64,000 nucleotides of DNA from Patescibacteria group bacterium (GTDB taxonomy: Bacteria; Patescibacteriota; Minisyncoccia; UBA6257; GWB1-50-10), in the NCBI GenBank assembly GCA_023474215.1, contig JAMCYI010000006.1, positions 1,452-65,451 of the forward strand, written 5' to 3'. Both the position numbers and the translations under genes were made by a program. The notes beneath the pieces were generated by a model. It saw only the letters and a program-made list of their open reading frames with translations. It did no database searches and was not told where the DNA came from. Below, in pieces: positions 14,357 through 59,743 of the stretch (position 1 is its first letter; every line of letters starts with the position of its first letter).

Positions 14357-14367
14357 CGACTAAATTT

Positions 14368-15033: not shown

Positions 15034-15040
15034 GGGCCCA

Positions 15041-15532: not shown

Positions 15533-15539
15533 ATTTCAA

Positions 15540-38697: not shown

Positions 38698-40473
38698 CTA
38701 AGATACTTCCTTCTGGTAGCATTCCTCGCAGTATACGATCTCGGGGCGGTCGGGGGCGTAGGTCGATTCGAACTCGTTCGGACAATGGCCGTCGCCATGC
38801 GCGTGGGACACGGTATTTTGATACACGCCGTTCTCAGATCTCGTTCCGGCGCATTGGCACTTCCGATGCCAAAGATCCAACGGATTCCTCTTCCGCAGCC
38901 GGTCGAAATGCCGGCAGTTGGGGCAGAGGCGCGGCAAGGCGACGCCCATTTTTTGATAGAGCGACAGCTCTTCGGCCGTCATACGGAAAGCCGTCGTGCA
39001 CTGCTCCGTGCACTTGCCGGCATGAGCGCACTCAATGATATTTTTCAGGATGTTTTCATCCGCCGCTTTTATGTCGTCCGGGATATCGGCGTTCTTCATC
39101 GTTACCTGATAGTTCCTCCCTTCGGGGTCCTTCCATGCGTATCCTTTCGCGAGCGCTTCTTCTTTCGCGAGCGGGAAATATTCGATCGCAACCGTTTCGT
39201 TGTACGCGAAGGGCGAGAGGTCCGGCGGGAAGAACTCGCCATAGCCGTATGTTCTCCCCTTCTGGTCCACATACGGCATATCCTTCATATGCTGAATAAG
39301 CTTCGGAACCAGAGCTTCGTACTCTTCCTTGGCATATTGCTTGTTCAAAATGCAGTAGTGTTTATCCTTCATACCGACGCATCCGAAGAGATTCGAAGAA
39401 CGTTCGCAATTAATGGAATGGTAAATATCATTTCCATTAATGACGATCCATGATCCCACAATGCGGCTTCCGGGATAAATGCTCATCGAATTGTAGACCA
39501 GCTCGCTCTTCAGACCCATGTGGCTCGACGAATGGCTGTCCTTCGCGCCCGCCGCAACGAGGAACATGTCGCGGCAATCCTCCGTGCCGTCGAAGACCTC
39601 GAACGACCGGTGCACGTTCTTCGAATTGAAGATGTTGTCGCCGGTGCAATTGAGCGAATTGATGATGCGGTACGGCCGCACGATGTTTTTCAGGCGCTCT
39701 TTCGCGAACCGCTCTTTCGTTTCCGTAAGCGTCCGGTAGCTTCCGAGATTCATTTCGCCGACGAGCTTCTTGTATTCTTCCGGCGTCTTCCGCTCGCCGA
39801 AATAGTAATATTTCTGATTCCGCAGGTTCACCGATCCGAAGCAATCCGTGCAGCCGTTCAAATCGAATCCGAATTTCACGTCGACACAGTTGTTGAGGAA
39901 TCCGCCGAACGCCGATCGGGAACAATTCTCCGAATCGGTCAGCTCGTAGGAGAGCTCGGCCCGCGTCACCCAGTAGAGCTCCATCGCATTCTTGCAGTGG
40001 AAATTGAACGTCGCATGGAGGCAATCCTCGTTGAAATCGCCGCCGAAAACCATATAGCAATTCTTGTTGCTCTCGGTGAAATTGCAATATTCACTGTTGA
40101 CGCCGTTCCAGTTGTTGAGCGAAGCGAATGGCACGTCGTGCATTAGTTCCTTGATCTGCTGGAACAAGGGCCGCGAAAAATCAACGTCGCGTCCGTATTC
40201 GGTCGGGTCCCACGAATCGCCGTGCCAGACGCTCTGTTCGTATACCTTGAAATCCTTTTCCGGAGAATAAATGGAAAGGATGTCCTTGCCGGTCTTGGAA
40301 TCCTTCCGCCGGTAGAGGTTCCGCTCGTTGCGGAACGCCAAGCGCTGCTGAAGCCGGCAGTCGGGACAAAGCGTCTCTGCCGGCACCTTCATCATCTCGA
40401 AAAAGCTGAAATCGTCCGCTTCGAGCGTGAAATCTTGCTTGCAGTTTTGGCATTGCCGAATTTCCGAAGTCAT
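38698..40473 (-). CDS. Cys-rich multi-zinc-ribbon paralog family, member 1 of 10 (591 aa). Family not recognised.
   Basis: N-terminal CQNC..F.LE..DF.F...KVP..T.CPDCR.QQR.AFRNER.LY. Duplicated internal module '..CFGC..LR.K.YCILNKQYAKEEYEALVPKL'. C-terminal LCPNCRH..RL..RNP..LWHRKCQC...CPNEFE..YAPDRPE.VYCEECY. Confidence 0.6.
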   Translation of the reverse strand: MTSEIRQCQNCKQDFTLEADDFSFFEMMKVPAETLCPDCRLQQRLAFRNERNLYRRKDSKTGKDILSIYSPEKDFKVYEQSVWHGDSWDPTEYGRDVDFSRPLFQQIKELMHDVPFASLNNWNGVNSEYCNFTESNKNCYMVFGGDFNEDCLHATFNFHCKNAMELYWVTRAELSYELTDSENCSRSAFGGFLNNCVDVKFGFDLNGCTDCFGSVNLRNQKYYYFGERKTPEEYKKLVGEMNLGSYRTLTETKERFAKERLKNIVRPYRIINSLNCTGDNIFNSKNVHRSFEVFDGTEDCRDMFLVAAGAKDSHSSSHMGLKSELVYNSMSIYPGSRIVGSWIVINGNDIYHSINCERSSNLFGCVGMKDKHYCILNKQYAKEEYEALVPKLIQHMKDMPYVDQKGRTYGYGEFFPPDLSPFAYNETVAIEYFPLAKEEALAKGYAWKDPEGRNYQVTMKNADIPDDIKAADENILKNIIECAHAGKCTEQCTTAFRMTAEELSLYQKMGVALPRLCPNCRHFDRLRKRNPLDLWHRKCQCAGTRSENGVYQNTVSHAHGDGHCPNEFESTYAPDRPEIVYCEECYQKEVS

Positions 40474-40514
40474 ACGTTTATTTTACACTAAATCACCACT
40501 CCGGCCTAAAAGGA

Positions 40515-40598
40515 GCGAGCCAGATGCCTCCGCGAAGGCTAAGACTTGGGCGTCGCCCCGGAGACAGCCTGAGCGGAGGTATCCGGCGAGCGACAAAG
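40515..40598 (-). terminator. third copy of the conserved-core hairpin element (arms cctccgc/gcggagg), reverse orientation, 3' of array member 2, with a 'gctcgctccttttagg' tail on the minus strand
   Basis: Core is an exact reverse complement of the 15053..15093 core. Alternative pairing partner 'gcggagg' lies within the last codons of member 2. Confidence 0.55.
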
Positions 40599-42341
40599 TT
40601 ACACTACCTCCGCGTTATAGCACTCTTCGCAGTAGACCGTTTCTGGCCGGTCGGGAGCGAACGCCGTCTCAAATTCGTTCGGACACTTTCCCGAATGGCC
40701 GTGATTGGACTTATCGCACATGCAAGAGCGACGCCAGAGCTTGAGGGGCGTTCCCTGCTTCAGGCGCTCGTAGTGCCGGCAGTTCGGACAGAGATGCGGA
40801 AGCGGCAAATCCATCCTCCTCAAGAACTGCAACTCCGGAGCGATGATCCTGAACGCGCCCGTGCATTGCTCGCCGCATTTTCCTCCGTGAGGGCATTCAA
40901 TGATCTGATCCAGAATATCGTCTTCTACACCCTTAATATCGTCAGGCAATTCGCTCGCTTTCATTGAAACCGCATAATCTTTCGCCGCCGCGTTTTCCCA
41001 CTGATATTTCTCTTCCGCCGCTCCTTCCGCCGTCAGCGGGAAATACTCCTCAGCGATCGTCTCGTTGTACGCGAAGGGCGAGATCTCGATCGGGAAGAAC
41101 TCTCCGTATTTATATATTCTCCCCTTCTCGTCTGCATACGGCATCTCGTCCATGTGTTTTTTGATCTTCGGGATCAGGGCCTCGTATTCCTCCTTGGAGT
41201 ACTGCTTGTTCAGGATGCAAAAATCCTTTTTCCGCACGCCGACGCACCCGAAAAGATTGGACCCTCCCCGGCAGTAATCCGAATACTCCACGTTCACGAT
41301 ATTCTCGTAGGTATTCGAGGAGAAGAAATTGCGGGAATCGTGATAAGCGACATTGACCCCCTCGTAACTCAGTTCCCCGCCGTCCCCCGCGCCGTGGAGG
41401 TCCATGCAGTCCTTGATCTTGAGTGCCTGCGTGCAATACCGCAGGTTTTCGCATTCATCGATGTTGAACGATTTGAAAATGTTTTTGGAATTGATGATAT
41501 GGTTGCCGCTCACGTTCACAACCTTATTCGTGAACGCAAACCTCTGGATGGAATTCTTCTTCAGTTCGGCATACTCGCCCTTGAGCGACTCGATGGTTTT
41601 CGCACTCCCCAATCCTATCCTTTTCAGCCTTTCTTCGTAATCCTCTTTGGTAAGCTGTTCGCCCCGGAATACATATGATTTGTTTCTCAAATTGGACCCC
41701 ATGAAACAGCTCTTGCAGCCCGCGCAGTTGTACAGAAAATAAGAATCCATGCAGTCGCGGCAATTCTGGAGGTAGGCGGAATGGACCGCATGGTTGGTAT
41801 CCATAGATTCATAGCAAAATTCCGAATCGGTAACGACATTCGAGTCAAAGACGTCGCGATCGTGGAATGCTTTATGGCTGTAAGCGATATTTTCGGAATA
41901 AAAAGTCGAAGGCGCCATATAGACATCTTTCGAAAGCCACGTGAAATTGGAGTAGGGCGCATTCTGATTTTGAAGGCTTTCCAAGGCCAGACGGGGAACC
42001 TCCGCTAAAAGCTCCCGGAATTGCTCGAAGAACGGCTTCGAGAAATCGTAGTCGCGGCCGTACGACATGACGTCCCATTTATCGGAAAACCAGCAGTCGT
42101 AGCAGTGAACTTTAAACGGCCGGTCTCCGGAGTACATCGAGATGATGGATTTGCCGCAAAGATCGCACGTATCCTTGTACAAACTGCGTTCGTTCCGGAA
42201 CGCCATTCGCCGCTGCCGCCGGCATTCCGGGCACCAGGTTGGCGGAGGAACTTCGATCTTCTCGTAGAATGCGAAATCCTCCGGCTCAACCGTGAACTCT
42301 TTTTTGCAATTCTGGCAGGTTCTGGTTTCGGCTTTGGTCAT
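40599..42341 (-). CDS. Cys-rich multi-zinc-ribbon paralog family, member 2 (580 aa)
   Basis: Same architecture. The N-terminus MTKAETRTCQNCKKEF and the 5' flank are shared with member 7. Confidence 0.6.
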   Translation of the reverse strand: MTKAETRTCQNCKKEFTVEPEDFAFYEKIEVPPPTWCPECRRQRRMAFRNERSLYKDTCDLCGKSIISMYSGDRPFKVHCYDCWFSDKWDVMSYGRDYDFSKPFFEQFRELLAEVPRLALESLQNQNAPYSNFTWLSKDVYMAPSTFYSENIAYSHKAFHDRDVFDSNVVTDSEFCYESMDTNHAVHSAYLQNCRDCMDSYFLYNCAGCKSCFMGSNLRNKSYVFRGEQLTKEDYEERLKRIGLGSAKTIESLKGEYAELKKNSIQRFAFTNKVVNVSGNHIINSKNIFKSFNIDECENLRYCTQALKIKDCMDLHGAGDGGELSYEGVNVAYHDSRNFFSSNTYENIVNVEYSDYCRGGSNLFGCVGVRKKDFCILNKQYSKEEYEALIPKIKKHMDEMPYADEKGRIYKYGEFFPIEISPFAYNETIAEEYFPLTAEGAAEEKYQWENAAAKDYAVSMKASELPDDIKGVEDDILDQIIECPHGGKCGEQCTGAFRIIAPELQFLRRMDLPLPHLCPNCRHYERLKQGTPLKLWRRSCMCDKSNHGHSGKCPNEFETAFAPDRPETVYCEECYNAEVV

Positions 42342-42390
42342 TTGATCATTCGTATATTGAAAATTAAAAATTGTAAATTGAAAATTTTAA

Positions 42391-44133
42391 CTACACGACT
42401 TCGGCGTTGAAGCATTGTTCGCAATAGATGACCTCCTTCCTCTCGGGCGCGTAGCTCGTCTCGAACTCGTTCGGGCACGGTTTGCCTCCGTGGAAATGAG
42501 TTTTCAAATCACACATGCACGTACGGTGCCACAATTTCATGGGATTCCGCTGTTTCAAGCGTTCGTAGTGCCGGCAGTTCGGGCATAACCGAGGCAGGGA
42601 CAGATTCATCCGCTTATAGAATTGAAGTTCCTGGGGAGCAATCTTAAAGGCGCCGACACACTGATGGAGACATTTCCCCTCGTGCGCACACCCGATAACC
42701 TCGTTCACGATGGAGTCGGTGACGTCTTTGATATTGTCCGGAAGATCCCGAGAAAGAATGGTTGTTTTGTATTCCTTTATGTCTAGATCTTTCCACCGAT
42801 ATCCTCGGCTTATCGCTTCTTCCTTCATAAGGGGGAAATATTCCTGCGCGATGGTTTCGTTATAGGCGAAAGGAGAAATTTCCGGCGGAAAGAATTCACC
42901 GTAGCGGTATACTCTCCCCTTCTTGTCGATGTAAGGAACATCATTCATCTGTTTTATGATTTCCGGGATCAACTCCTCGTATTCTTCCTTCGCGTACTGC
43001 TTATTCAGGATGCAGTATTGCTTGCTTCGGAGACCGATACAGCCGAAACAATCATTACATCCGTGGCAGTTGTAACTGTAGAGAATATTCTTTCCGCCCC
43101 AAACGACAATGTCATTCACCAAACGATGAGCCTTCAGCCCAGAATCGATGATCTCGTAGCCCAATTCGAGGTCGCCCGGGCCATAACTGTCATAAATGTC
43201 ACTCATGACGACGCCGCCGTTCATGGTATATTTGCAATCTTTTGCGTTATCGAAAAGGTCGAAGCAAGACTTGCAGTTTTTTACGTTCGTCAAATTGTCG
43301 CCCGTCGAATCCGGCGCGTTTACCAAAAAAGCGAATTTGCGGATCGCTTTCAACTTAAGGGCATCAAAATCGCGCTTGAGCCGTTCGAGTTCTTGGTAAC
43401 TCCCCAGATTGAATTTTTTCAGTTCCCTTGCGTACCCCTCCGAAGAGTACTGCTTATTGAACATGCAATAACTCTTATTCCTCAAATTCGAACACCCGAA
43501 GCAGTTCGAGCATCCTTTGCAGTTATAGAGAAAATACGAATTGTTGCATGAATCGCAATTATCGGAAAAAAAAGTGCGGTACAATTTCATACCCGTGATG
43601 GTCTCGTAGCAAAGTTCGAGATAGGAGGACGACAAAACATCAAGGGAGTCCTTCGACATCCACGCTTTATTCGCATACATCACCCGCTCGTTCATCCACG
43701 AGCCGAACACCAGGTAGCAATCCTTGGAACGCCCGCTATGATTGGTGTATTCGCAGTTCTCGGACTGGGCATTGAAGATCGCCGGCATTGGCGCGCGTTC
43801 GAGAAGCAACCGGAATTGATCAAAGAACGTCTCCTTGAAATCATAGGGGCGGCCGGAACCAAGCGGGTCCCACTGATCGCTCCACCAAACATCACGATCA
43901 TACACCGTCACCTTGGCATCCGGCGAAAAGATAGAAATGACCCGTTTCCCCGTCAGGTCACAATTCCTCTGATAGAGCGAACGTTCATTCCGCCACGTCA
44001 TCTTGCGCATCAGGCGGCAATCCGGGCAGAAGGTCGGCGGCGGAACCTTGATCTTTTCATAGAAAGAAAGGTCCTCGGCTTCGATCGTGAACTCCCGGTG
44101 GCAATTCTGGCACGTCTTTTTCCTCGATTCCAT
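42391..44133 (-). CDS. Cys-rich multi-zinc-ribbon paralog family, member 3 (580 aa)
   Basis: Same architecture. Confidence 0.6.
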   Translation of the reverse strand: MESRKKTCQNCHREFTIEAEDLSFYEKIKVPPPTFCPDCRLMRKMTWRNERSLYQRNCDLTGKRVISIFSPDAKVTVYDRDVWWSDQWDPLGSGRPYDFKETFFDQFRLLLERAPMPAIFNAQSENCEYTNHSGRSKDCYLVFGSWMNERVMYANKAWMSKDSLDVLSSSYLELCYETITGMKLYRTFFSDNCDSCNNSYFLYNCKGCSNCFGCSNLRNKSYCMFNKQYSSEGYARELKKFNLGSYQELERLKRDFDALKLKAIRKFAFLVNAPDSTGDNLTNVKNCKSCFDLFDNAKDCKYTMNGGVVMSDIYDSYGPGDLELGYEIIDSGLKAHRLVNDIVVWGGKNILYSYNCHGCNDCFGCIGLRSKQYCILNKQYAKEEYEELIPEIIKQMNDVPYIDKKGRVYRYGEFFPPEISPFAYNETIAQEYFPLMKEEAISRGYRWKDLDIKEYKTTILSRDLPDNIKDVTDSIVNEVIGCAHEGKCLHQCVGAFKIAPQELQFYKRMNLSLPRLCPNCRHYERLKQRNPMKLWHRTCMCDLKTHFHGGKPCPNEFETSYAPERKEVIYCEQCFNAEVV

Positions 44134-44182
44134 ATTTTGTCTTAGGGTAATTAGGTTAATCAGAAATTAGAATAATTCGCCT

Positions 44183-45985
44183 TTATACTTTCTCCTTCTG
44201 GTAGCATTCGGCGCAATAAACAATATCGGGCCTCTCCGGTGCGAAGCTCGTCTCGAACTCATTCGAACAATGCCCATCGCCGTGTGCATGCTTCGAGAGA
44301 TTTGTATAGACGTAACTTGTTTCCTGCCCTGAGCCTGTCGAAGGGTCGCTTGCTGCTCCCCCACACTGGCATTTCCGATGCCACAGCTTGAACGGATTCC
44401 TTAATGCCAGGCGCTCGTAGTGCCGGCAGTTCGGACAGAGGCGCGGGAGGGGCAGGTTGAATTTGCGGTAGAAATCCAATTCTCCGGGAATGATTTTGAA
44501 GGCCTCGGTGCACTGATGGGTGCACTCACCCTTATGCGCACAGCCGATCACTTCTTTCAGAATATCGTCCGACACATCTTTGATGTGGTCGGGAAGATCT
44601 TCCGCTTCCACCGTGACGGCGTATTCCTTTTTTCCGAGATTCTTCCATACATACTTCTTCGAGAGTGCCTCTTCCTTTTTTAACGGGAAATATTCCTGCG
44701 CGAGGGTCTCGTTGTACGCGAAGGGTGATATTTCATGCGGGAAAAATTCGCCGTACGCGTATTTCCTTCCGGCTGCGTCCACGTACAGCGTTGCGTTCAT
44801 CTGTGCGATAATCTTCGGGACCAATGCTTCATATTCATTCTTGGAGTACTGTTTGTTCAAAATGCAGTATTCTCTGCTTCGCAAACCAACGCAGCCGAAG
44901 AGATGCGAGGAGGTGTGACAGCAATAGACGTATTGGACGTCATGGCAGCCGTGCGTATAAACGGTGAATTTGTAGTTCGACCCATTGATGCCTGAGTCGA
45001 CGCCTTCATACAGCAGTTCGCCGTTCGCCCCGAATCCGTACCCGTCGTATGAATCCTTGAGATCGATGGCGTGGATGGCGTATTTGGAATCCTCCGTTCC
45101 GCCGTAGCCGTCAAAACACTCTTTGCAGTTCTTGGCATCGCCGACATGGTCCCCCGTCGTACCAGCGCATCGGAGGAACGCCGCAAATTCCCGCGGAAAT
45201 TTGCGGTGGAATTCCTCGAACTCTTTCTTGAACGCTTCGAGATTCTGATAGCTTCCGAAATCGTATTTGGCCCGTTCTTTTTGGTATTCTTCTTTTGAGT
45301 ATTGCTCGTTGAAGATGCAGTATTGCTTGTTCCTCAAGTTGACGCATCCGAGCGAATTGTTCGTGTTGGTGCAATGCCGGAGGAACATCGAATCCATACT
45401 TTGTCCCGCATCGTACGAGAAAAACACCCGATTCAAGTTGTCAGAGAGCGTATCCTCATAGCAAAGCTCGGCCTTCAAATCATTGTAGAGATCCATCGAG
45501 TCCTTCCCTTCCACGATGCCACTCGAGAACGAAACGTTATCGCACTCATAGGAGGCATAGAGAAGATAGCAATCCTTCGAATCGGCATTGTGGTTCCCGT
45601 AATCGCTCCGTGTGACGTTGGTATTCGCGAGATTGGGAAGCGGCGCTTGGTGCAGGAGTTCTCTATACTGCTCAAAAAACGGACGCGAGAAATCATAGTC
45701 GCGGCCCGACTGGAGATTATCCCATTTGTCGCTCCACCAATAATCCCGATCGTAGACGACCATGTTGCTCTCAGGTGAGAACATCGTGAGAAATTCCTTT
45801 CCCGTCGCTGCACACTTCCCCTTGTAGAGCGTCCGCTCATTTCGCCACGTGAACCTCCTTTGCATCCGGCAATCCGGACAAAACGTGGGTGGTGGTACTT
45901 GAATCCTTTCATAGAAACTGAAATCCTCGGGTTCGATAACGAACTCTTTCTTGCAGTTTTGGCAGGTTTTCGATTCGGCAGCCAT
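44183..45985 (-). CDS. Cys-rich multi-zinc-ribbon paralog family, member 4 (600 aa)
   Basis: Same architecture. The C-terminus 'HAHGDGHCSNEFETSFAPERPDIVYCAECYQKEKV' and the 3' flank are shared with member 1. Confidence 0.6.
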   Translation of the reverse strand: MAAESKTCQNCKKEFVIEPEDFSFYERIQVPPPTFCPDCRMQRRFTWRNERTLYKGKCAATGKEFLTMFSPESNMVVYDRDYWWSDKWDNLQSGRDYDFSRPFFEQYRELLHQAPLPNLANTNVTRSDYGNHNADSKDCYLLYASYECDNVSFSSGIVEGKDSMDLYNDLKAELCYEDTLSDNLNRVFFSYDAGQSMDSMFLRHCTNTNNSLGCVNLRNKQYCIFNEQYSKEEYQKERAKYDFGSYQNLEAFKKEFEEFHRKFPREFAAFLRCAGTTGDHVGDAKNCKECFDGYGGTEDSKYAIHAIDLKDSYDGYGFGANGELLYEGVDSGINGSNYKFTVYTHGCHDVQYVYCCHTSSHLFGCVGLRSREYCILNKQYSKNEYEALVPKIIAQMNATLYVDAAGRKYAYGEFFPHEISPFAYNETLAQEYFPLKKEEALSKKYVWKNLGKKEYAVTVEAEDLPDHIKDVSDDILKEVIGCAHKGECTHQCTEAFKIIPGELDFYRKFNLPLPRLCPNCRHYERLALRNPFKLWHRKCQCGGAASDPSTGSGQETSYVYTNLSKHAHGDGHCSNEFETSFAPERPDIVYCAECYQKEKV

Positions 45986-46009
45986 ACTAAATACTATATA
46001 CCAAATACC

Positions 46010-47752
46010 TTATACTATCTCTTTCTGGTAGCACTCCTCACAGTAAACCCTCAAGTGCAATTCAGGGTCATAAGCCGTCTTGATATCTTTCCCGCAGTTG
46101 GAGCAATGAGATCCAAAAAGATCATACGGGCTTCTTTTTCTGAAGCGGTTCAGCAATCTGGTTCGGGGATGCAAGAGCGGCACCGGGATTGAATGTTTCC
46201 GGTAGAAGTCGAATTCCTGCTTGGTTATCTTGAAAGGTTTTCTCGAGACCTCACAAATAATGGTTGAATCCAGTATCGAATCAGCGACATTCTTTATGTT
46301 ATCCGGTATGTTATTAGCGGCCGGAGACGCTTCAGGCGCTTTCTCGTTCTTGAGGCGGGGTTTCATTGTGCTGTACCTATTTTCATCAAGAGGACACAGG
46401 GCTCCGGCATAACTGTCTTCATAAAAGAAGAACGCGTTACCAAGCGGCAAGAATTCGCCGTAACCACCTCCCTGAACCATGCTTGTTTTTATTTCATCAA
46501 CCAGTTTCCAATATTCGTCTTCGGAGTACTGTTTATTCAAAATACAGTATTTCTTTTTGCTGAGTCCGCTGCAACCAAAACAATACTGGCAATCGGAACA
46601 CTCGAATGAGTACTCGGTCTCCAGGCAGTTTTCCACGAAGTAAGAAGCTATTACCCTGTTGACGGATAAGGCCTCAATGACGTTATAGCATTCTTGCCCC
46701 GGCCCGAAGATCGTGACATCCATGCAATCCGTAGCGCCGATGAAGTCCTGCCCATAGCGGATGTTTTCGTTTTTATAAAAAGTTAAAAGGAATTTGGCGC
46801 TGGTACCCCAGAAGGACTGAACACAATTCTTGCAGTCTCTCAAGTGGTCACCCAAAGAGCCGGGGGAATTCTTTGCCCAGAGGGCCTTAAAAATGCCGTT
46901 GGTACGCAGGAATTCATCGAACTTCTTCTTGTACTCTTCGCGTATTTTTCTGCTCCCCAAATCAATCTCCGCCATCCTCTTTTCATAGTCCTCTTTCGAA
47001 AGCTGCTCGTTGAAGAAGCAGAATTTTTTATTCCTTAAGTTACTGCACCCGAAGCAGTTCTGGCAGTTATGGCAGTCAAAGAGGAAATACGAATTGATGC
47101 AGTCGCTGGAATTTTGAATATGCTGGGAATTGTGGATGCGGTCCGAGTCGATGATTTCGTAAGAATCCTGGACGTGGTCTGCAGACGACAAATCAAGCGA
47201 ATTCTGTGAATAAATCACCCAAAAGCCGTACGAAACGTCTTGAGCCATGCCGATGATCGAGGAAAGATAACAGTTTTTGACATCGAAACTCTGAACGGTG
47301 TATTCGCTGTTCACAATATCTTTGTTGTACCTTGCGAGAGCCCGGTGAGGCACCGCTCTTAAGAGATCAATGAACTGGCTCGAAAAATCGCGGTTCGCAT
47401 CATAATTTTGCCCGAAGGTGAGCGGATCCCACGCGTCCGACCACCAAAATTTATTGTCGTAGATCCGGTATTCGTTCTCCTCGGACATTTGAGACAATGC
47501 TTTTTCTTCCGGATGGGCAAAACAGGTCTTCTTGTAGAACTGGAAAATGCTTCCCGACATCGCGGTCCTTTTTATCATCCTGCACTTCGGACATTCTCTC
47601 GGCGGTAAAACGTTCAACTTGCGGCAGAAATCGATGTCCTCCGAAAAAATCTCAAAGCCTGAACCGCACATCGTGCATATGCGCGAGCCCGGTTTCGCTT
47701 CATTCAAAACCTTCCCAATCACCGCATCAAATTTTGGTGTTTTATCCTTCAT
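46010..47752 (-). CDS. Cys-rich multi-zinc-ribbon paralog family, member 5 (580 aa), the most divergent copy
   Basis: Retains the WWSDAWDP, '..CFGCS.LR.K.FCF.NEQLSKEDYE', 'KKYCILNKQYSEDEY' and terminal CxxC pairs, but has a different N-terminus. Confidence 0.55.
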   Translation of the reverse strand: MKDKTPKFDAVIGKVLNEAKPGSRICTMCGSGFEIFSEDIDFCRKLNVLPPRECPKCRMIKRTAMSGSIFQFYKKTCFAHPEEKALSQMSEENEYRIYDNKFWWSDAWDPLTFGQNYDANRDFSSQFIDLLRAVPHRALARYNKDIVNSEYTVQSFDVKNCYLSSIIGMAQDVSYGFWVIYSQNSLDLSSADHVQDSYEIIDSDRIHNSQHIQNSSDCINSYFLFDCHNCQNCFGCSNLRNKKFCFFNEQLSKEDYEKRMAEIDLGSRKIREEYKKKFDEFLRTNGIFKALWAKNSPGSLGDHLRDCKNCVQSFWGTSAKFLLTFYKNENIRYGQDFIGATDCMDVTIFGPGQECYNVIEALSVNRVIASYFVENCLETEYSFECSDCQYCFGCSGLSKKKYCILNKQYSEDEYWKLVDEIKTSMVQGGGYGEFLPLGNAFFFYEDSYAGALCPLDENRYSTMKPRLKNEKAPEASPAANNIPDNIKNVADSILDSTIICEVSRKPFKITKQEFDFYRKHSIPVPLLHPRTRLLNRFRKRSPYDLFGSHCSNCGKDIKTAYDPELHLRVYCEECYQKEIV

Positions 47753-48074
47753 CCAAAAGTTCCCTCGCTATCCGTTTCTCAAGTCGGTCCATCGCTTTTG
47801 GAAAAGAAGTCTCCATATTAACGTCGAACTTCTTCGAGAGAACGAGGATTGACCACAAGCAATCCATGAGTTCGTGTTCCAGTTTTTCGTTTAGTGCTTC
47901 TGCGGTTCGTACTCCTTCTCTCGCCATGACGAGTTTCATGAGATCCCCCACATCACCCACGAATCCTTCCATGATCTGGGCTTCTGTCCACTCCTTCCCG
48001 TATTTCTTCTTTTCGAGCTCCGCGTACTTTTCCCGTACCTCCACAGCACGGGAGATTAAGTCTTTAATTTCCAT
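47742..48074 (-). CDS. MazG-like nucleotide pyrophosphohydrolase (YpjD-type all-alpha NTP-PPase) embedded in the paralog array
   Basis: 110 aa. 'EGFVGDVGDLMKLV...EHELMDCLWSILVL' EExxE/D motifs. Overlaps the member-5 start by 11 nt. Confidence 0.65.
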   Translation of the reverse strand: MEIKDLISRAVEVREKYAELEKKKYGKEWTEAQIMEGFVGDVGDLMKLVMAREGVRTAEALNEKLEHELMDCLWSILVLSKKFDVNMETSFPKAMDRLEKRIARELLDEG

Positions 48075-48092
48075 AGATTCATTATAAGCGAA

Positions 48093-49784
48093 CTATCCAA
48101 CCTCCGCATTATAACAGCTTTCACAATACACAATCTCCGGACGTTCGGGGGCGTACGAGGTTTCAAATCCATTTTGACACGAGCTGGAATGATTGTGATT
48201 TTGCTTATCACACATACAACTCCTGTGCCAAAGCTTCACGGGGTTTTTGAGCTTCAACCGATCCTTGAGCCGGCAGAAAAAGCACCTTCGCGGCACCGGG
48301 ATGCCATTCTTTTTGTAGAACGCCAGCTCTTCGGCGATGACTTTGTAATTTCTCCCGCATTCCATACAAGCGAGAATTTCATCCACGATTGAATCGGGTA
48401 CGTCACTGATCGCGTCGGGGATTTCTCGCATTGTCTCTTTTCCCGTCGTGAATTGGAGCTTGTCTTGCCATCGATACCCTTTCGCGAGCGCTTCGTCTTT
48501 CGTAAGCGGATAGCTGTCCTGCGCGAGAGTTTCGTTGTATCCGAAAGTGGAAAGCGGCACCGGGAAAAACTCGCCCCATTCCCCTCTTTTTTTCATATTC
48601 TCTATGATTTCCGCCTTGAGCTTCTCATACGATCCTTTGTCGTACTGTTTGTTCAAGATGCAGTACTTGGCGCTCTTCAAGCCCACACATCCAAAAAGTT
48701 CTTCCGACGATTGGCAACTGTCTGCATAGAGAACGTTCCGATCCTTATGGCAGTACGACGTGAAATGCGTACCGTACGAATTATCCGGATTGATTCCTTC
48801 GTAGCAAAGCTCCTGCTCGCCCCCGCTTGCGCAGTCGTAACTGTCTTTGATCGTGTCGCCATTCTCGAAGAATTTCGAATCCTCGACGCGGACAGCATTC
48901 CAGCAATTCAGAGCATTTTTCGAATTCACAAGATAATTTCCCGTGCAATTTACGCAATTCATGAAATTCGCCGGTCTTCGCGGGAATTTCAGTATGAAAC
49001 CGAAAAACTCCTTTTTAGCCCGTTCCGATCCGCTCCACGTGTCGAGCCGGTAACCGGCCACTATTTTTCCATACTCCTCTTTCGAGTACTGCTCGTTCTT
49101 CACACAGTACTTTTTGTGGCGGAGGCCGATCGACATAAAGCAGTCGGTGCAATCCTTGCAGTCGTAGCAGAAAGCGCAATCGATGAGCGATTCCGAATTG
49201 AAGATGAATCGGCACGAATTACTCTCTCCCACGTAAATCGACTCGTAGATATTCCGGGCATTCGAGAAAACCGTCATCACGTCCACCATATCCTTCGCGT
49301 TCACCATATGGTAGCAATACATGCAATTCTCCACTTTCCATGAGTTCATCGTGAGGTAACAGTTTTTGCCGAGGGCGAAGTAGTTCGTGTATTCGCACCC
49401 GACGCTCGCGATGTTGTTGTCGTTCAGAATCGCGAGAGCCGGCACGGTATCAAGAAGTTCCCGATACTGTTCGAAGAACGGCCGCGAGGGATCGTAATCC
49501 CGCCCGTACTGTCCAGGATCCCAGCCATCGCTCCACCAGCACTTATTGCAGTAGATCGGAACGAGCTTCTCCGGCGAGTAGATAGAAATGATTTTTCGGC
49601 CGCAGAGCCCGCACTCGCGATTATAGAAATTGTAGTCGTTCCGCCAGGCAAGCCGCCGCTGCCTCCGGCAGTCGGGGCATTGGGTCGCCGCCGGTACGCC
49701 GATGCGGTTATAAAAAGAAAAGTCATCAGGTTCGATGACGAACTCCTGACGGCAGTTTTGGCAGCTTTTTGTTTCCGGACTCAT
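48093..49784 (-). CDS. Cys-rich multi-zinc-ribbon paralog family, member 6 (563 aa)
   Basis: Same architecture. ATGA overlap with member 7. Confidence 0.6.
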   Translation of the reverse strand: MSPETKSCQNCRQEFVIEPDDFSFYNRIGVPAATQCPDCRRQRRLAWRNDYNFYNRECGLCGRKIISIYSPEKLVPIYCNKCWWSDGWDPGQYGRDYDPSRPFFEQYRELLDTVPALAILNDNNIASVGCEYTNYFALGKNCYLTMNSWKVENCMYCYHMVNAKDMVDVMTVFSNARNIYESIYVGESNSCRFIFNSESLIDCAFCYDCKDCTDCFMSIGLRHKKYCVKNEQYSKEEYGKIVAGYRLDTWSGSERAKKEFFGFILKFPRRPANFMNCVNCTGNYLVNSKNALNCWNAVRVEDSKFFENGDTIKDSYDCASGGEQELCYEGINPDNSYGTHFTSYCHKDRNVLYADSCQSSEELFGCVGLKSAKYCILNKQYDKGSYEKLKAEIIENMKKRGEWGEFFPVPLSTFGYNETLAQDSYPLTKDEALAKGYRWQDKLQFTTGKETMREIPDAISDVPDSIVDEILACMECGRNYKVIAEELAFYKKNGIPVPRRCFFCRLKDRLKLKNPVKLWHRSCMCDKQNHNHSSSCQNGFETSYAPERPEIVYCESCYNAEVG

Positions 49785-51550
49785 GCGACTTCACTGTTAT
49801 AACATTGCTCGCAGTAGATGATTTCCTTCCCCTCGGGAGCATATGGCGTCTCGAACTCGTTCGGACACCGGCCGGAATGATCATGGTCAGGTTTCTCACA
49901 CATACATTGCCGATGCCAGAGCTTCATGGGCGTGCGCCCCTTGAGGCGTCCGTAATGCCGGCAATTCGGGCAAAGTGTCGGGAGCGGAATGTTCATCTTT
50001 TTATAGAACGCGAGTTCTTCCGGCGTGATGCGGAATGCTTCCGTGCATTGCTCGTCGCATTTCCCCTCATGTGCGCATCCGATAACCTCTTTCACCATAT
50101 CGTCCGAAACGATGCGAATGGCGTCGGGCAAGTCGGCCGGCTTCAGGGTTATTTCGTAATTTCTCGCCTCCGGATCACGCCACTGGTATCCCATTGCCGT
50201 CGCTTTTTCTTTCGTCGAAGGGAAATACTCCTCGGCCACCGTCTCGTTGTATGAAAAAAGGGCGATTTCCGGCGGGAAAAACTCGCCGAAACCGTACCGC
50301 ACTCCCCTTTTATCGACATACGGCATCTCGTCCATGTGTTTTTTAATTTTCGGGAGAAGTTCTTCATATTCCTCCTTCGAGTATTGCTTGTTCAAAATGC
50401 AATACTCCTTGTTCCGCATGCCGTAACATCCGAACATATGGTGCGACCCGTGCGTGTGGACACTCCACCACACGTCGCTCGAATCATAGACTACGACACC
50501 GCCCACGATCCTCGATGAGCTGTTGATATCGACGCCTTCGTAGAGGAGTTCCGACTTCCAGCCGGCCCCCGGCCCGCAATCGTATATTCCCTTGCTTCCG
50601 AATCCGCTCCAGTTTACATACCGGCAATCTTCCGTGTCGTCGCCCACGAAATCGAAGCAATCCCGGCAGTTCTTCGTATTCTGCAAATGATCGCCCGTCG
50701 AACCGACCGAATTCACGATGTCCGCATATTTATGGATCGCTTTCACATACACCTCGTCCTGGAATTTCCGTCGGACTTCTTCGAGGACCTTCCGGCTTCC
50801 GAGGTTCAGTTCCTTGACCCTCTTTTCGTATTCGTCCTTCGATATCTGCTCGTTGAAAATACAATATTGCTTATTTCTCAAATTCGCACATCCAATGCAG
50901 TCCCGGCAGTTCTTGCAGTTGTAAAGGAACCAGGAATCGCTGCAACCCTCGCAGTTCGAGGAATACAAGAGCCGGTACGAACCGCTGACGTACGAACCAT
51001 CGTAGCAAAGCTCGCTGCCGTCGACGATATAGAGATCGAGCGAATCCTTATCCTTCACCATCCGGTTCGCGTACATCACGTTCTCGTTCCATCCGCCGGC
51101 GGAAACGAGGTGACAGTTCTTGTTCCACGCGGCGGAGCTGCAATATTCGCTATTCACCGAATTCGTGTTCGAAAGCGTGATTAAGGGCACGCGGCTGAGA
51201 AGCTCCGCGTACTGTTCAAAGAACGGCCTCGAGAAATCATAGTCCTTCCCGTACTGCATCGGATCCCACGCGTCACTCCACCAGTATTTCTGATCGTAGA
51301 CGGTGTACGGCGCGTTCGCCGGATGGAGGCTGATAATGTCTTCCGAATGTCCCGGTACACCGCACTTCCGCTTATAGTAGGTACGTTCGTTCCGCCACAC
51401 CATTCGCCGCGCGGCGCGGCATGCCGGGCACCACGTCGGGACCGGCACGCCGATCTGTTGGTAAAAATCAAAATCTGCAGAATCGATAACGAACTCTTCT
51501 TTGCAATTTTGGCAAGTTCTGGTTTCAGTTTTGGTCATTTGATCATTCAT
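49781..51550 (-). CDS. Cys-rich multi-zinc-ribbon paralog family, member 7 (589 aa; true start probably MTKTETR at about 51538)
   Basis: Same architecture. 5' UTR contains AT-rich direct repeats shared with member 2. Confidence 0.6.
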   Translation of the reverse strand: MNDQMTKTETRTCQNCKEEFVIDSADFDFYQQIGVPVPTWCPACRAARRMVWRNERTYYKRKCGVPGHSEDIISLHPANAPYTVYDQKYWWSDAWDPMQYGKDYDFSRPFFEQYAELLSRVPLITLSNTNSVNSEYCSSAAWNKNCHLVSAGGWNENVMYANRMVKDKDSLDLYIVDGSELCYDGSYVSGSYRLLYSSNCEGCSDSWFLYNCKNCRDCIGCANLRNKQYCIFNEQISKDEYEKRVKELNLGSRKVLEEVRRKFQDEVYVKAIHKYADIVNSVGSTGDHLQNTKNCRDCFDFVGDDTEDCRYVNWSGFGSKGIYDCGPGAGWKSELLYEGVDINSSSRIVGGVVVYDSSDVWWSVHTHGSHHMFGCYGMRNKEYCILNKQYSKEEYEELLPKIKKHMDEMPYVDKRGVRYGFGEFFPPEIALFSYNETVAEEYFPSTKEKATAMGYQWRDPEARNYEITLKPADLPDAIRIVSDDMVKEVIGCAHEGKCDEQCTEAFRITPEELAFYKKMNIPLPTLCPNCRHYGRLKGRTPMKLWHRQCMCEKPDHDHSGRCPNEFETPYAPEGKEIIYCEQCYNSEVA

Positions 51551-51662
51551 TGGAAATTGATTGAAAATTAAAAATTGGAAATTGAAAATTCCACCTTGAA
51601 TTCATTATAAAACAAATGCTCCACGGTTAGCCGCAGAGCATTAAAACAGTCAACAAGGGGGG

Positions 51663-52103
51663 TTATATCGTGGGGCTGACGACGATGATCCCGCCGAGGA
51701 TCGGATCTTCTTTTTCCTCGGACTTGAAAGAAACGATCTTCCAGTCCGGTCGCAAGCTCAAGTCGTCATATTCGACATCGCCGAGTTCGGCGTGCACCGA
51801 CGACCAGAACACCTTGCGAAGGATGTCCGCCTTGTCCATGAGGTTGCGGTAATCGCGGAAAACTTTTTCGCACTCTTTTTCCATGCCGTCGCCGCCGAAG
51901 AGGAACCGAGCGTGCTTTTGCTCGTGATCTTTCTTCATCTTACTTGCTTCTTTGGCAAGTTTGGCATGGAGAGAATAGATCCGCTTCAAGTTATCATTGA
52001 CCTCGATTACCACACGACCTTCCGGATAGGGACCTTCCGCTACCGGCTTCACGATCGTAGTACTGTCGATCTCCTTTTGGAGATCTTCGAGAAATGTGGC
52101 CAT
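51663..52103 (-). CDS. hypothetical protein (146 aa) within the array interruption
   Basis: ORF only. No recognised motif. Confidence 0.4.
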   Translation of the reverse strand: MATFLEDLQKEIDSTTIVKPVAEGPYPEGRVVIEVNDNLKRIYSLHAKLAKEASKMKKDHEQKHARFLFGGDGMEKECEKVFRDYRNLMDKADILRKVFWSSVHAELGDVEYDDLSLRPDWKIVSFKSEEKEDPILGGIIVVSPTI

Positions 52104-52169
52104 AAACCACCTCCTGTATTAGTGAGAAATATGTTTAGTTACAGGACTATACTATAAACTATTTTCATA

Positions 52170-53303
52170 TTATTTGTCAATCTCTGTTCGCCTCTTGCCG
52201 AAAAAGCGGACATAGAGATACATATTTGCGGCCATAACGGCGCCATACGCAAAAAACGGGACATCGAGGAGCGCTGCATCCATGAGGTATCCGGCGAGCC
52301 CCGTGCCGGCCGAGGAAGCCGCAAGACGCGCGACTTGGTTCACGCCGAGCGCGCGGCCCATTTCATCGCCATCCACCCGGCGCGTAAGTTCCGCCTGCTG
52401 GATCGGAAGCGCCATGATGCGGAGCGCCGGTCCAAAAACGTACACGAAAACGGCAAAAGGCAGGAAACGAATGATCGGGAAAGCGACGAAGAGAGCCGTT
52501 CCGATCCCCCTGCTCCACACCATGCTTTTTACGAATCCGAGATGTTTTTCGAGGAGCGGCGCTGCGAGAATGGCAACGGACCCTACAACACCCGAAAGAA
52601 AAGCGTATTCCGCCATTTGTGATTTTGGAATGTTATAAACCAAAAGAAAGAATGGGATGAGGAACGGAACGATGAGGCCTTGCGAAAATCCGTTCAAAAT
52701 GCCGGTCAAGGTGAATTTTCCGATGGTCGTTTTCGTCTTCAAAACGCGGAGCTTGCCCTTGGATTCCGTAACTTCGATGAATGGCAATGCAACGACACCC
52801 AATGCCGCGACAACGGTCGCAATGAGAAAAATATCTTGGACCGAGAAAACTTTCGCAAAGAGCGCGCCGATGGCCGCCACGATGCCCGAGAGGAAGGTAA
52901 AGAAGGAAAAGTATTTCGTCCGTTTTTCGCTCGGCGTGAGTTCCGTGATGACGGTGTTTTGGATCGGTTGGACTGCACCGCCAATGCCGCCGCCGGCCAA
53001 GGATCCGGTTGCGGAGTACCCCCCCACCATCGCTGCAAGGAATACCACCCACAAACTCGACGAAAAATATACCAAAGCGGAACTCACCGGCAGGAGCGCG
53101 CTTGCAATGAAAAGCGTCCCCCGCTTCCCCCACACGTCGGTCGTGATGCCGGCAAAGAAACTCAAGACCGCCGTCGCAATCGTCGCTGCGACGTAAATAA
53201 GGCCGATCATCCCGGCGCTTTGATGAAGGTCGACCAACACGTAGTACGGAAATGCGATATTGATCATCCCGGCCGCAATGCTCCGGGTGATCCTTGAAAC
53301 CAT
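52170..53303 (-). CDS. MFS transporter (start at internal MVSRITRS)
   Basis: About 12 TM helices and an MFS-type 'G..TDVWGKRG' loop motif. Confidence 0.7.
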   Translation of the reverse strand: MVSRITRSIAAGMINIAFPYYVLVDLHQSAGMIGLIYVAATIATAVLSFFAGITTDVWGKRGTLFIASALLPVSSALVYFSSSLWVVFLAAMVGGYSATGSLAGGGIGGAVQPIQNTVITELTPSEKRTKYFSFFTFLSGIVAAIGALFAKVFSVQDIFLIATVVAALGVVALPFIEVTESKGKLRVLKTKTTIGKFTLTGILNGFSQGLIVPFLIPFFLLVYNIPKSQMAEYAFLSGVVGSVAILAAPLLEKHLGFVKSMVWSRGIGTALFVAFPIIRFLPFAVFVYVFGPALRIMALPIQQAELTRRVDGDEMGRALGVNQVARLAASSAGTGLAGYLMDAALLDVPFFAYGAVMAANMYLYVRFFGKRRTEIDK

Positions 53304-53373
53304 AATGAGGTAAATGCCTTTTTTCTTGGGCCTTAGTTCAATTTCCACAGTAAGAACGATTATATCACACTGA

Positions 53374-53613
53374 ATGAAACCAGGTGGTATAATAAGAGTG
53401 ATGAAAAGCCGCGAGAATGCCATGTACGACACCACGAAACTCGCCAAATTCTTCGGCGTGACCGAACGAACCGTTCTCGAATGGTGCCGGAAGGGCAAAT
53501 TGCCGGCTTTCAAAATCGGCAGAAAGTGGAAAATCAGGGTCGTCGACCTCCAGAAAATGATCGACCGCAAAATACACACTTCCAAGGGAAATACTCCCCC
53601 ACACTTACTGTAA
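53374..53613 (+). CDS. excisionase/Xis-family helix-turn-helix DNA-binding protein (HTH_17-like)
   Basis: 'TTKLAKFFGVTERTVLEWCRKGKLPAFKIGRKWKI' matches the excisionase-type HTH pattern. It is the only + strand gene within the array. Confidence 0.55.
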   Translation: MKPGGIIRVMKSRENAMYDTTKLAKFFGVTERTVLEWCRKGKLPAFKIGRKWKIRVVDLQKMIDRKIHTSKGNTPPHLL

Positions 53614-53732
53614 TGATTTAATTACCGAAGGTCGGCGGCGGGACTTTAATCCGTTCGTAGAAACTAAAATCCTCCGGCTCGATAGCGAACTCCCGGTGGC
53701 AATTCTGGCATTGCCTCGTTTCAGAGTTCATG

Positions 53733-55442
53733 TCAGTTGAAGATATCCCTCAAGTAGCATTCCGTGCAGTAGACGACGGGGGCTTCATCCTCGCGGTAGT
53801 GCGTCCGGAGCTCTTTCCCGCACTTCGTGCATGTCCGTTCGATGAGAGACATCTGCTTGGCCCATTGCCGCACTTTTTCCTCAATACGACAGAAGGGACA
53901 TCGCCGCGGGAGGGGGAAGTTGTACTGCCGCAGGAACTGCAACTCATAGGGCGTGATTTTGTATCCCCGCGGGCACGCCGTGCACTTGATCACTTCTTTC
54001 AAAATATCATCCTTCGCATCCCGGATATGATCGGGGAGATCGGCGGCATCCATAGTCGATGCGTGTTCGGAGGGCGAGATCTCTACCCATGAAAGCCCTT
54101 CTCGCTGCGCTTCACCCTCTTCCAAGGGATGGAAGAGGTAGGCAAACGTGTCATTATAATCATGCGGCGAAAGCGTCGCCGGGAAGAACTCTCCGTAGCG
54201 GTACGTCCGCCCGGCGGGATCCACATACGGCGTCGAATTCATCTGCCCGATGATCTTTTCCCGCATCGCGTGGTATTCTTCCTTCGTATACGGCTTATTG
54301 AAGATGTAATACTGTTTGTTCCGAAGACCCGAGCATCCAAAAAGATAGGAACATCCCATGCAGCTTTTCGAATATTCCACGTGGTGGCTCGCGTGAATGT
54401 CCTGGCTGAATTTGACGTCGGCGACCTGGTTTCCCACCGTGATGCTGTCGTAGATGCGCTCCGCGCCCTCCCCCCAGTCGGTATAATCATAGCTGTCTTT
54501 CACGGTCGGCGCCTTGATGAGCATCATATACTTCGAATCTTCGCAGTAGCCGGAGTCGTAGCATTCCTTGCAGTTCTTGGAATAGAAAACGTAGCTCCCC
54601 GTGCAGTTGTCGTTGAACATATAGTCGTAGCAGGGATTCGGGATCGAATTTTTCCACACTTCCGCCGAACGCTTTTTCATTTCCTGGTACGTTTTGTAGG
54701 AACCGAGGTCGATCCCGTCCATCTTTTTCTCATACTCTTCCTTGGTCAACTGCTCGTTGAGGAACACGTACTTCTTATTGTGGACGTTCGCGGATCCGAA
54801 GCAATGCTCCGCATTCCGGGCATCCCGCAGGAAATAGGAGTCGAGCGAGCTGTGGACGTTCCCCCGCGAACCGTGGACGCGGTTGTTCCGGAAACCGTTC
54901 ATGCCGTCGTAGCATTCGGTACACTCCCAATAGACGCTGCAGTCGAGGAGCGCTTTGTCTTTCGTCAGATAAAAGCCGTACTCGCAGTCGTCGCTGTTGT
55001 CGGAATAAAAGATGAGATAGGAATTCTTCGAGCTCGCGCAATGGTTGGTGTAGGGAGAAAGTTCCTGCACGTCCTTCGTCACGGCGAGTCCCCGAATCGG
55101 AACTCGGTGGAAATGCTCGTTCAGTTGTTCGAAAAACGGCCGCGAGAAATCATAATCACGTGCATAGTCCTCGGTATTCCATCCATCACCCCACCAGCAG
55201 TCGGGGCAGTAAACCCGATAGGGCGAATTCGGCCGGTACATCGATATTTTCTCTTTCCCGCAAAGATCGCACTTCCGCTTATACAAACGGAAGCCCTTGA
55301 GCCACATGAGCCGCCTTTCGAGCCGGCATGCAGGACAGAAGGTCGGCGGCGGGACCTGGATCTTCTCGTAAAAGATGAAATCATCGGGTTCGATAATGAA
55401 TCCTTGATGACAATTCTGGCAAATTCTTGATTCGGAACTCAT
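53733..55442 (-). CDS. Cys-rich multi-zinc-ribbon paralog family, member 8 (start at MSSESRICQNC)
   Basis: Same architecture. ATGA overlap with member 9. Confidence 0.6.
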   Translation of the reverse strand: MSSESRICQNCHQGFIIEPDDFIFYEKIQVPPPTFCPACRLERRLMWLKGFRLYKRKCDLCGKEKISMYRPNSPYRVYCPDCWWGDGWNTEDYARDYDFSRPFFEQLNEHFHRVPIRGLAVTKDVQELSPYTNHCASSKNSYLIFYSDNSDDCEYGFYLTKDKALLDCSVYWECTECYDGMNGFRNNRVHGSRGNVHSSLDSYFLRDARNAEHCFGSANVHNKKYVFLNEQLTKEEYEKKMDGIDLGSYKTYQEMKKRSAEVWKNSIPNPCYDYMFNDNCTGSYVFYSKNCKECYDSGYCEDSKYMMLIKAPTVKDSYDYTDWGEGAERIYDSITVGNQVADVKFSQDIHASHHVEYSKSCMGCSYLFGCSGLRNKQYYIFNKPYTKEEYHAMREKIIGQMNSTPYVDPAGRTYRYGEFFPATLSPHDYNDTFAYLFHPLEEGEAQREGLSWVEISPSEHASTMDAADLPDHIRDAKDDILKEVIKCTACPRGYKITPYELQFLRQYNFPLPRRCPFCRIEEKVRQWAKQMSLIERTCTKCGKELRTHYREDEAPVVYCTECYLRDIFN

Positions 55443-57136: not shown

Positions 57137-57139
57137 GTA

Positions 57140-57262
57140 GAAATTTTACATCAAATATAGGGCTCTCGGCAGTCCTCCGGATTCCCGAGGACCAAAAAAA
57201 GCGAGCGGGGCGCCCATGGTGCCCCGCCCGCGATACCCCCGAGCTGCCTTCGGTGTTCGGGG
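57140..57262 (-). terminator. cluster of three GC hairpins between array members 10 and 9
   Basis: Inverted repeats gcggggc/gccccgc and cccccga/tcggggg seen directly. Confidence 0.4.
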
Positions 57263-57265
57263 GGG

Positions 57266-59589: not shown

Positions 59590-59743
59590 CAATGCTCAAA
59601 ATCCTAATTTCAAAATCCTAAATCCTAAATAAACCCCCCAATACTCTAAATTCAAAATTCTAAACGCATGTTTTGGTCATTAAAATTTGTATTTCGATAT
59701 TGTTCAGGATTTGGTGCTTAGGATTTAGAATTTTAAACCAGGG
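59590..59743. repeat. second copy of the ~150-bp inverted-repeat AT-rich element (see 14225..14356)
   Basis: Aligns with the first copy at roughly 80% identity. Same orientation on the + strand although the flanking genes are on the opposite strand. Confidence 0.55.

Follow-up and report, generated by a model that had tools for sequence, protein, structure and literature searches.

An array of zinc-ribbon paralogues from a Patescibacteria group bacterium is interrupted by a gene of another kind, a MazG-like NTP pyrophosphohydrolase, which raises the question of whether this enzyme works with the array proteins or has come to lie among them by accident. The initial annotation favored the first possibility, taking the position of the gene in the operon to be fixed and to suggest a functional link with the family. 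In the window, by which we mean the whole 64,000-nucleotide stretch of DNA that was analyzed, the 110-aa open reading frame (ORF) is present as described, between two array members on the same strand, here called the upstream member (member 6) and the downstream member (member 5). The geometry claimed for it is exact: the gene begins 18 nt past the upstream stop codon and overlaps the downstream start by 11 nt (Table 1). The TAG stop of the upstream member occupies 48095..48093, the MazG ATG 48074..48072, and the ATG of the downstream member 47752..47750. The part of the MazG gene that lies in the overlap is a four-codon extension (LDEG) relative to 106-aa relatives.

Table 1. Features of the window discussed in the text
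Feature	Coordinates	Strand	Basis and remarks
MazG-like gene, 115 aa, unrelated to the MazG gene of the array	6324..6671	-	PF12643, 66.8 bits
Downstream array member ("member 5"), 580 aa	46010..47752	-	Divergent subfamily; identity matrix
MazG-like all-alpha NTP pyrophosphohydrolase gene	47742..48074	-	ATG start, 110 aa; acidic tetrad D41/D44/E68/D71
Overlap of 11 nt, MazG 3' end and start of downstream member	47742..47752	-	GATGAAGGATAA, read in two frames
Spacer of 18 nt, stop of upstream member to MazG ATG	48075..48092	-	Sequence TTCGCTTATAATGAATCT
TATAAT (-10-like) box, its end 6 nt upstream of the MazG ATG	48081..48086	-	Sequence; predicted own promoter
Upstream array member ("member 6"), 563 aa	48093..49784	-	ORF list, identity matrix

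The overlap depends on where the downstream member begins. On sequence comparison, the ATG at 47752 is its true start, as orthologues have the same N-terminus: 19 of them (53–65% identity) share it, with the consensus MxSKTPKFD, and residues Thr5, Phe8, Asp9, Cys26, and Cys29 are nearly invariant, with Asp39, Ile40, Cys54, and Cys57 also conserved. In the NCBI annotation this protein is truncated to 492 aa, and a spurious antisense ORF of 101 aa is called in its place. For the MazG gene itself, length alone is no proof, because the window contains 178 ORFs of at least 100 aa. The gene is real, given its 1150 database homologues, the 20 invariant columns of its family alignment, a pN of 0.11 against a pS of 0.77 between it and a paralogue, and an AF2 model with a pLDDT of 93. 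Homologues elsewhere are annotated as "nucleotide pyrophosphohydrolase." An identical protein is encoded on contig DAIBZB010000001.1 of GCA_027423645.1 (Patescibacteria group bacterium); roughly 165.6–229.6 kb of that contig, read as the reverse complement, make up the window, and identical copies of the protein sequence were obtained from several samples.

The assignment to the MazG/YpjD-type all-alpha NTP pyrophosphohydrolases holds at the superfamily level, as judged by family profile, predicted fold, and acidic tetrad. The protein matches Pfam PF03819 with 17.9 bits (E 0.0037), below the gathering threshold of 22 bits; all 25 aligned relatives match the same profile at E ≤ 0.01 (best 6.1e-8), and the subthreshold score is a shortfall of sensitivity for a divergent subfamily. 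The MazG family is defined by four acidic metal ligands, with an EExx(E/D) motif and an ExxE...ExxD arrangement (PMC10014863). In the 25-sequence alignment, both D41-x-x-D44 and E68-x-x-D71 are invariant, and all 20 invariant columns, which also include Tyr17, Glu21, Trp29, Arg56, Lys64, Cys72, and Glu88, are kept in the window protein. Profile alignment places G-D41-V-G-D44 opposite G-E-V-G-E and E68-L-M-D71 opposite E-L-S-D of DCTPP1, such that the four ligand positions are acidic, with Asp in the first pair where Glu is canonical.

The AF2 model (pLDDT 93.2) is a four-helix bundle with helices at residues 3–25, 31–52, 61–82, and 87–108. Its best Foldseek matches in the PDB are YpjD (2gta), DCTPP1 (7mu5), Bacillus MazG (5ie9), and Escherichia coli MazG (3crc), with the top matches spanning probabilities of 0.99–1.0 and TM scores of 0.56–0.73. 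A search of the PDB with the family profile returned 5ie9, 2gta, DCTPP1/RS21-C6, and the integron protein iMazG at E values of 7e-4 to 7e-3; no solved or characterized protein was found to be closer than ~20% identity. The subfamily, which is common across Patescibacteria, falls into 372 clusters at 50% identity (E ≤ 1e-10), and relatives at ~50% identity occur beyond that phylum in Opitutaceae, Kribbella, Anaerolineae (Chloroflexota), and Phenylobacterium. With a mean column identity of 72%, it represents a compact and very conserved DxxD...ExxD variant that extends from Patescibacteria to Opitutaceae and Actinomycetes.

The association between this enzyme and the array is not maintained across genomes. 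Two arrays are syntenic with that of the window, lying between the same MFS and 146-aa genes on one side and the Peptidase_M17, DUF6938, and EamA genes on the other, and neither contains a MazG signal even at E < 10. In the first (L097, from GCA_027423705.1), where flanking proteins are 97–99% identical and the DNA is ~92% identical, a single divergent member of 551 aa replaces the upstream member, MazG, and the downstream member together. In the second (L099), where flanks are 78–85% identical, an orthologue of the upstream member (88/78% identical) is followed directly by an orthologue of the array gene at 42391..44133, with no MazG between them. The array is a structural hot spot, differing in gene content between relatives whose flanking proteins are 97–99% identical.

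Wider surveys agree from both directions. This type of MazG is present in none of 85 loci of the array family, which span 1.02 Mb and carry 272 family ORFs in arrays of as many as 11 genes; 80 of these loci were collected by scanning metagenomes with the downstream member's subfamily as the seed. Conversely, a search by tblastn and family HMM found an array-family gene within 10 kb of none of 80 MazG loci (1.25 Mb), these being the best 80 from other species in species-representative genomes, taken with their flanks. When all neighbors within 4 kb were clustered, no family recurred in more than 6 of 85 MazG loci. Some homologues lie in glycosyltransferase/Wzy clusters, again with a downstream overlap of 8–11 nt, and others adjoin POR, rubrerythrin, and Zip genes or EamA and NUDIX genes. 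Across 80 or more species, the contexts are those of ordinary housekeeping (glycosyltransferases, POR, release factor). A literature search on MazG in Patescibacteria/CPR found nothing specific.

The sole MazG-type match in the 85 family loci is a PF12643-type gene ~5 kb from the nearest member (locus L102). That locus holds a close homologue of the 6324..6671 protein, whose gene lies ~41 kb from the array MazG. The window thus does hold a second MazG-superfamily gene, as noted earlier, but "classic" is the wrong word for it: it belongs to the "MazG-like" PF12643 family and does not have the two-domain form. Its product matches a PHROG pyrophosphatase (2.1e-17).

Likewise, no MazG accompanies the nearest orthologues of the downstream member. 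The downstream member itself is 28–35% identical to the other array members and has orthologues in other Patescibacteria at 52–65% identity; the nearest, P0243 (65%) and P0242 (62%), are singletons with no MazG nearby. Joint acquisition of MazG and the downstream member as a cassette was considered and rejected, as neither these two nor eight metagenome loci (53–59%) have MazG nearby. The initial annotation had proposed a comparison of gene neighborhoods and had stated beforehand that absence of MazG from homologous arrays in other genomes would point to incidental insertion; MazG is absent from them, and neither the fixed position nor the functional link drawn from it is supported. MazG is a lineage-specific extra copy in a fast-changing array and not a conserved partner of the zinc-ribbon genes. 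The result matters mainly as a negative one. The array family is very large (at least 8000 matches, all "hypothetical"), and because the association is not conserved, guilt by association with MazG tells nothing about what this uncharacterized zinc-ribbon family of Patescibacteria does.

The only residual hint of linkage comes from adjacencies restricted to one clade. A second copy of the gene (P0002, locus L001) lies on the same contig, 114 kb away. It encodes 106 aa, is 78% identical to the window copy in both protein and DNA, follows a lone 580-aa family member after a gap of 128 nt, and overlaps a Peptidase_S66 gene. At the same chromosomal site in GCA_009712145.1 (L011), a family member of 593 aa and a 207-aa gene are followed by a third MazG (P0003), 72–73% identical to the other copies. 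The flanks of this site (GreA, aaRS, SerRS, GrpE, and DnaK) are 88–97% identical between the two genomes, and in its interior MazG is 72% and the family member 47% identical, with several other genes differing; the site is a variable island. MazG after a family member was seen only in these two genomes, twice in that of the window.

Had these three adjacencies arisen independently, chance would be unlikely to account for them. We regard them, however, as probably not independent, with one ancestral adjacency followed by recombination among paralogous genes that would have carried MazG along. The family members at the three loci are 41–47% identical, no closer than other paralogues. Duplication of an upstream member together with its MazG from L001 is unsupported: the upstream members are 43% identical, and the excess at the 3' end is marginal. 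In sliding-window and codon-level comparisons, the 3' end of the window's upstream member is closest to the L001 member by a small amount (74% aa and 69% nt, versus 68% and 66% for the next best). DNA homology between the MazG copies themselves begins 12 nt upstream of the ATG and weakens around codons 97–106. Because the comparisons of the family members give no clear trace of MazG having been carried along by recombination, we leave a small share of probability to a clade-specific functional link.

The copy in the array is old. Between it and its paralogue, synonymous sites are saturated at a pS of 0.77, while the flanks differ by ~8% nt from those of L097, which excludes a recent duplication and dates the event, whether a duplication or the import of an allele that had already diverged, to before the split from L097. 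The outgroup P0003 stands at the same distance from both copies (72.6% and 71.7%), and this equality together with the low nonsynonymous divergence indicates that the array copy has been maintained and is not decaying.

The sequence upstream of the gene bears on how it may be expressed. No Shine-Dalgarno motif is found in the 18-nt spacer, and a scan for the σ70 consensus called no complete -35/-10 pair upstream of MazG, where the -10 box is present but a -35 element was not found. The TATAAT box is also found 6 nt before the ATG at the paralogous locus L001 and at L011 (TGATATAAT), and the TG of an extended -10, present in L011, is missing from the window copy. Among 32 low-GC homologue loci, a TATAAT-like hexamer lies exactly 6 nt from the start codon in 10 and 6–9 nt away in 16, with no other distance accounting for more than 3 cases. 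The box is probably the promoter of MazG itself and would give a leaderless mRNA. The same peak is seen before 13 of 57 window genes, among them the array genes 55439..57136, 44183..45985, and 38698..40473. From these sequences, the genome appears to use leaderless-type promoters widely, with TATAAT 6–7 nt before the ATG; a literature search on leaderless transcription in Patescibacteria found nothing specific.

Read in this way, the array would consist of several transcription units. MazG and the downstream member are probably cotranscribed as a two-gene unit, as suggested by the -10 box of MazG and by the position of the next box, before 44183..45985. The gene had been described as translationally coupled inside the array, and this description can be kept in part. 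It is plausible that the 11-nt overlap couples translation of the downstream member to that of MazG, but the start of MazG, with no Shine-Dalgarno motif and with a TATAAT box of its own, does not appear to be coupled to the upstream member.

Taken together, we think it probable that the window MazG is a house-cleaning enzyme of a free-standing family that came to lie in a hypervariable array through a lineage-specific accident of array turnover. The 110-aa four-helix-bundle protein would most likely act as an oligomer, with Asp41, Asp44, Glu68, and Asp71 binding Mg2+ or Mn2+, and is predicted to convert noncanonical or surplus (d)NTPs to (d)NMP and pyrophosphate. Its family is a free-standing housekeeping gene with no fixed neighbors, and the window copy is an old paralogue or xenologue of the copy in the variable island 114 kb away. 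It could have arrived between two array members by the recombination that shuffles those members, and it would have kept its own -10 box, with probable expression as a leaderless mRNA to which translation of the downstream member may be coupled. Its presence in the array would then be an accident of turnover and no part of the function of the array family. The gene is of an ordinary, already annotated type; more interesting are the array itself and the leaderless-type promoters.

The three adjacencies could also be read as recruitment within the clade, with MazG working alongside the zinc-ribbon/β-solenoid family and forming a bicistronic module with the downstream member, in which its task might be to clear a nucleotide by-product or to keep a nucleotide substrate in check. 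Such a module would be consistent with the 11-nt overlap, which lets the downstream member couple translationally to MazG, with the two-gene unit suggested by the -10 boxes, and with purifying selection on both MazG copies. We nevertheless consider recruitment unlikely. No specific relationship links the family members of the three loci, orthologues of the downstream member elsewhere never adjoin MazG, and close relatives with syntenic arrays do without it. Nor does the array family carry any sign of nucleotide chemistry: its proteins have no Pfam catalytic domain, and Foldseek gave weak left-handed β-helix matches (TM ≤ 0.23), with no clue bearing on a link to nucleotides. It is similarly improbable that MazG was captured as a working partner, paired with the most divergent member in a leaderless, coupled unit of two genes; in that case, nucleotides would be substrates or regulators of at least some members of this large uncharacterized family.

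Alternatively, the array copy could be a redundant duplicate that is heading for loss or is kept mainly as a promoter donor, its -10 box driving the downstream array genes. The genome does hold a second copy, close relatives lack the array copy, a conserved -10 box stands directly upstream, and the box of the window copy is without the extended -10 TG. Set against these observations, no invariant residue has been lost, pN/pS falls well short of 1 (though synonymous sites are saturated), no rate acceleration relative to the other copy is apparent, and the identical protein recurs in several samples. We regard a redundant duplicate as quite unlikely and accidental placement of a maintained house-cleaning enzyme as the better reading.

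Because MazG-type enzymes occur in MazEF operons and phages, a role in a toxin-antitoxin system or in phage defense or counter-defense, as raised in the initial annotation, was also weighed. The array would then be a defense island, in which MazG modulated alarmones or depleted dNTPs. This role is very improbable: the array is hypervariable between close relatives, as defense islands often are, and 3crc and 7ody are among the Foldseek results, but neither this MazG nor any array protein tested has a match in PADLOC or PHROGs, the ORF list shows no MazE/MazF-like pair near the gene, the family occupies ordinary housekeeping contexts across 80 or more species, and in structure the protein comes closest to the house-cleaning types YpjD and DCTPP1.

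Comparison with known systems sets the window protein among several MazG-type enzymes. The integron protein iMazG (2q73/2q5z) is a mobile cassette that carries its own recombination site. Like the window protein, which matches it in the profile search (E 0.0035), it is a single-domain MazG found inside a variable gene array. Unlike iMazG, the window gene is chromosomal and flush with its neighbors, and these lie too close to it, with the 18-nt gap and the 11-nt overlap leaving no room for an attC-type site; an integron-type cassette was rejected on these grounds. With the MazG proteins of E. coli and Mycobacterium tuberculosis (3crc), the window protein shares the superfamily and an acidic EExx(E/D)-type motif (PMC10014863), but those enzymes are tandem two-domain proteins of about 260–330 aa, whereas the window protein has a single domain. 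E. coli MazG resides in the mazEFG operon, and no MazEF-like pair accompanies the window gene in the surrounding ORF list. A MazEF-associated MazG is ruled out by this absence, by the single 110-aa domain, and by the zinc-ribbon paralogues on either side.

Closer likenesses are found among the house-cleaning enzymes. The all-alpha dCTP pyrophosphatase DCTPP1/RS21-C6 (6sqw, 2oie, and 7mu5) shares the fold and four aligned acidic ligands, but it is eukaryotic, has 170 aa with extensions, and is ~20% identical. YpjD of Bacillus subtilis (2gta) and Bacillus MazG (5ie9) are, like the window protein, single-domain four-helix bundles of about 100–119 aa, and they give the best matches by both Foldseek (TM 0.65–0.73, probability 1.0) and profile (E about 7e-4). 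They differ from it in sequence, with identities of ~15–21% and with E-E-x-G-E as the first motif where the window protein has G-D-x-G-D, and they have in common with it the second metal motif, E-L-x-D. The additional invariant positions of the window protein's family (Tyr17, Glu21, Trp29, Arg56, Lys64, Cys72, and Glu88) also set it apart from them. By modeled fold and motif, the window protein belongs with YpjD, Bacillus MazG, and DCTPP1 as a single-domain MazG-like enzyme of the house-cleaning type.

The array of zinc-ribbon paralogues surrounding the gene for the MazG-like NTP pyrophosphohydrolase (MazG) is structurally hypervariable. The array, whose members are approximately 565–600 aa long, was compared with those of two close relatives, L097 (GCA_027423705.1) and L099, and with loci L007 and L010. 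The number of members varies among relatives, and some members are swapped for paralogues of only 33–53% identity. Array orthologues are 82–95% identical, whereas the flanking proteins of the same relatives are 97–99% identical (~92% at the nucleotide level). In other samples with an identical MazG, the gene preceding the MazG-upstream member differs. The orthologue of that upstream member in L099 is broken into ORFs of 426 and 143 aa (L099 positions 8296..10004); this is either a pseudogene created by a frameshift or an artefact of assembly.

The second MazG copy, at locus L001, lies in a variable island of its own (L001 ~7478..15600), with a counterpart in GCA_009712145.1 (L011 ~6722..14300). 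Conserved housekeeping blocks, one including SerRS and the other HrcA-GrpE-DnaK, frame the island. The flanks of the two loci are 88–97% identical; the island genes are replaced or strongly diverged, with MazG at 72% and the family member at 47% identity. The L011 island holds PNPOx, His_Phos, NUDIX, an RNase_T-like gene, and DNA_alkylation repair genes. Two further MAGs, CAYYQC01 (L025/L034) and JAXLVX01 (L083/L085), each contain a pair of genes of this MazG subfamily, located on separate contigs, and MazG duplication is therefore not confined to the window genome. The labels Gammaproteobacteria and Bdellovibrionales attached to several of the MAGs with this subfamily look inconsistent with their Patescibacteria-like sequences.

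Several junctions and boundaries were observed within and around the array. A remnant of the family N-terminus (34–35 aa, 65–74% identity) lies directly 3' of an array-member stop. It adjoins an opposite-strand HTH_17 (excisionase-like) gene as well as the MFS gene by which the array is interrupted, and resembles an array gene cut short at the junction of an insertion. Between a 146-aa gene and the start of the next array member sits a strong hairpin of terminator type, with 12 pairs and then a T-run, that is likely to mark a transcription boundary within the array region. Of the TrwB/TraG-like ATPases on either side, one is syntenic in L097.

Features of the array region (window positions)
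Feature	Position	Strand	Remark
TrwB/TraG-like type IV coupling-protein ATPase	30953..32689	-	one side of array region
Zinc-ribbon paralogue array	38698..58972	-	
MazG-downstream member	46010..47752	-	580 aa
Antisense ORF	47547..47852	+	101 aa
TATAAT-like box	48081..48086		
MazG-upstream member	48093..49784		
Array member after hairpin	49781..51550		
Terminator-like hairpin	51615..51642	-	
146-aa gene	51663..52103		
HTH_17 gene	53374..53613		
N-terminal remnant	~53630..53731	-	
Array member before remnant	53733..55463		
TrwB/TraG-like type IV coupling-protein ATPase	59733..61190	-	other side of array region

In the public annotation of GCA_027423645.1, which encodes an identical MazG, the MazG-downstream member is shortened to 492 aa, and an antisense ORF is called across the 3' end of MazG and the N-terminal part of this member. 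Conservation among orthologues of the member shows that the 580-aa form is correct and that the antisense ORF is probably spurious.

Of 57 putative window genes, 13 have a TATAAT-like box ending 6–9 nt 5' of the ATG, and the distances peak sharply at 6 nt; besides the tabulated example, such boxes lie upstream of 45985, 40473, and 57136. MazG homologues in other low-GC genomes show this pattern too. This spacing suggests that leaderless-type transcription may be widespread in this Patescibacteria genome; a literature search found no published description of it in Patescibacteria.

Relatives of the array family number at least 8000 in the database, every one annotated as hypothetical. Comparison of an AF2 model of the MazG-upstream member (pLDDT 85.6) with the PDB gave no convincing match and only weak left-handed β-helix matches (TM ≤ 0.23); the model itself predicts treble-clef zinc-ribbon modules at the N- and C-terminal ends and a β-solenoid core at approximately residues 280–376.
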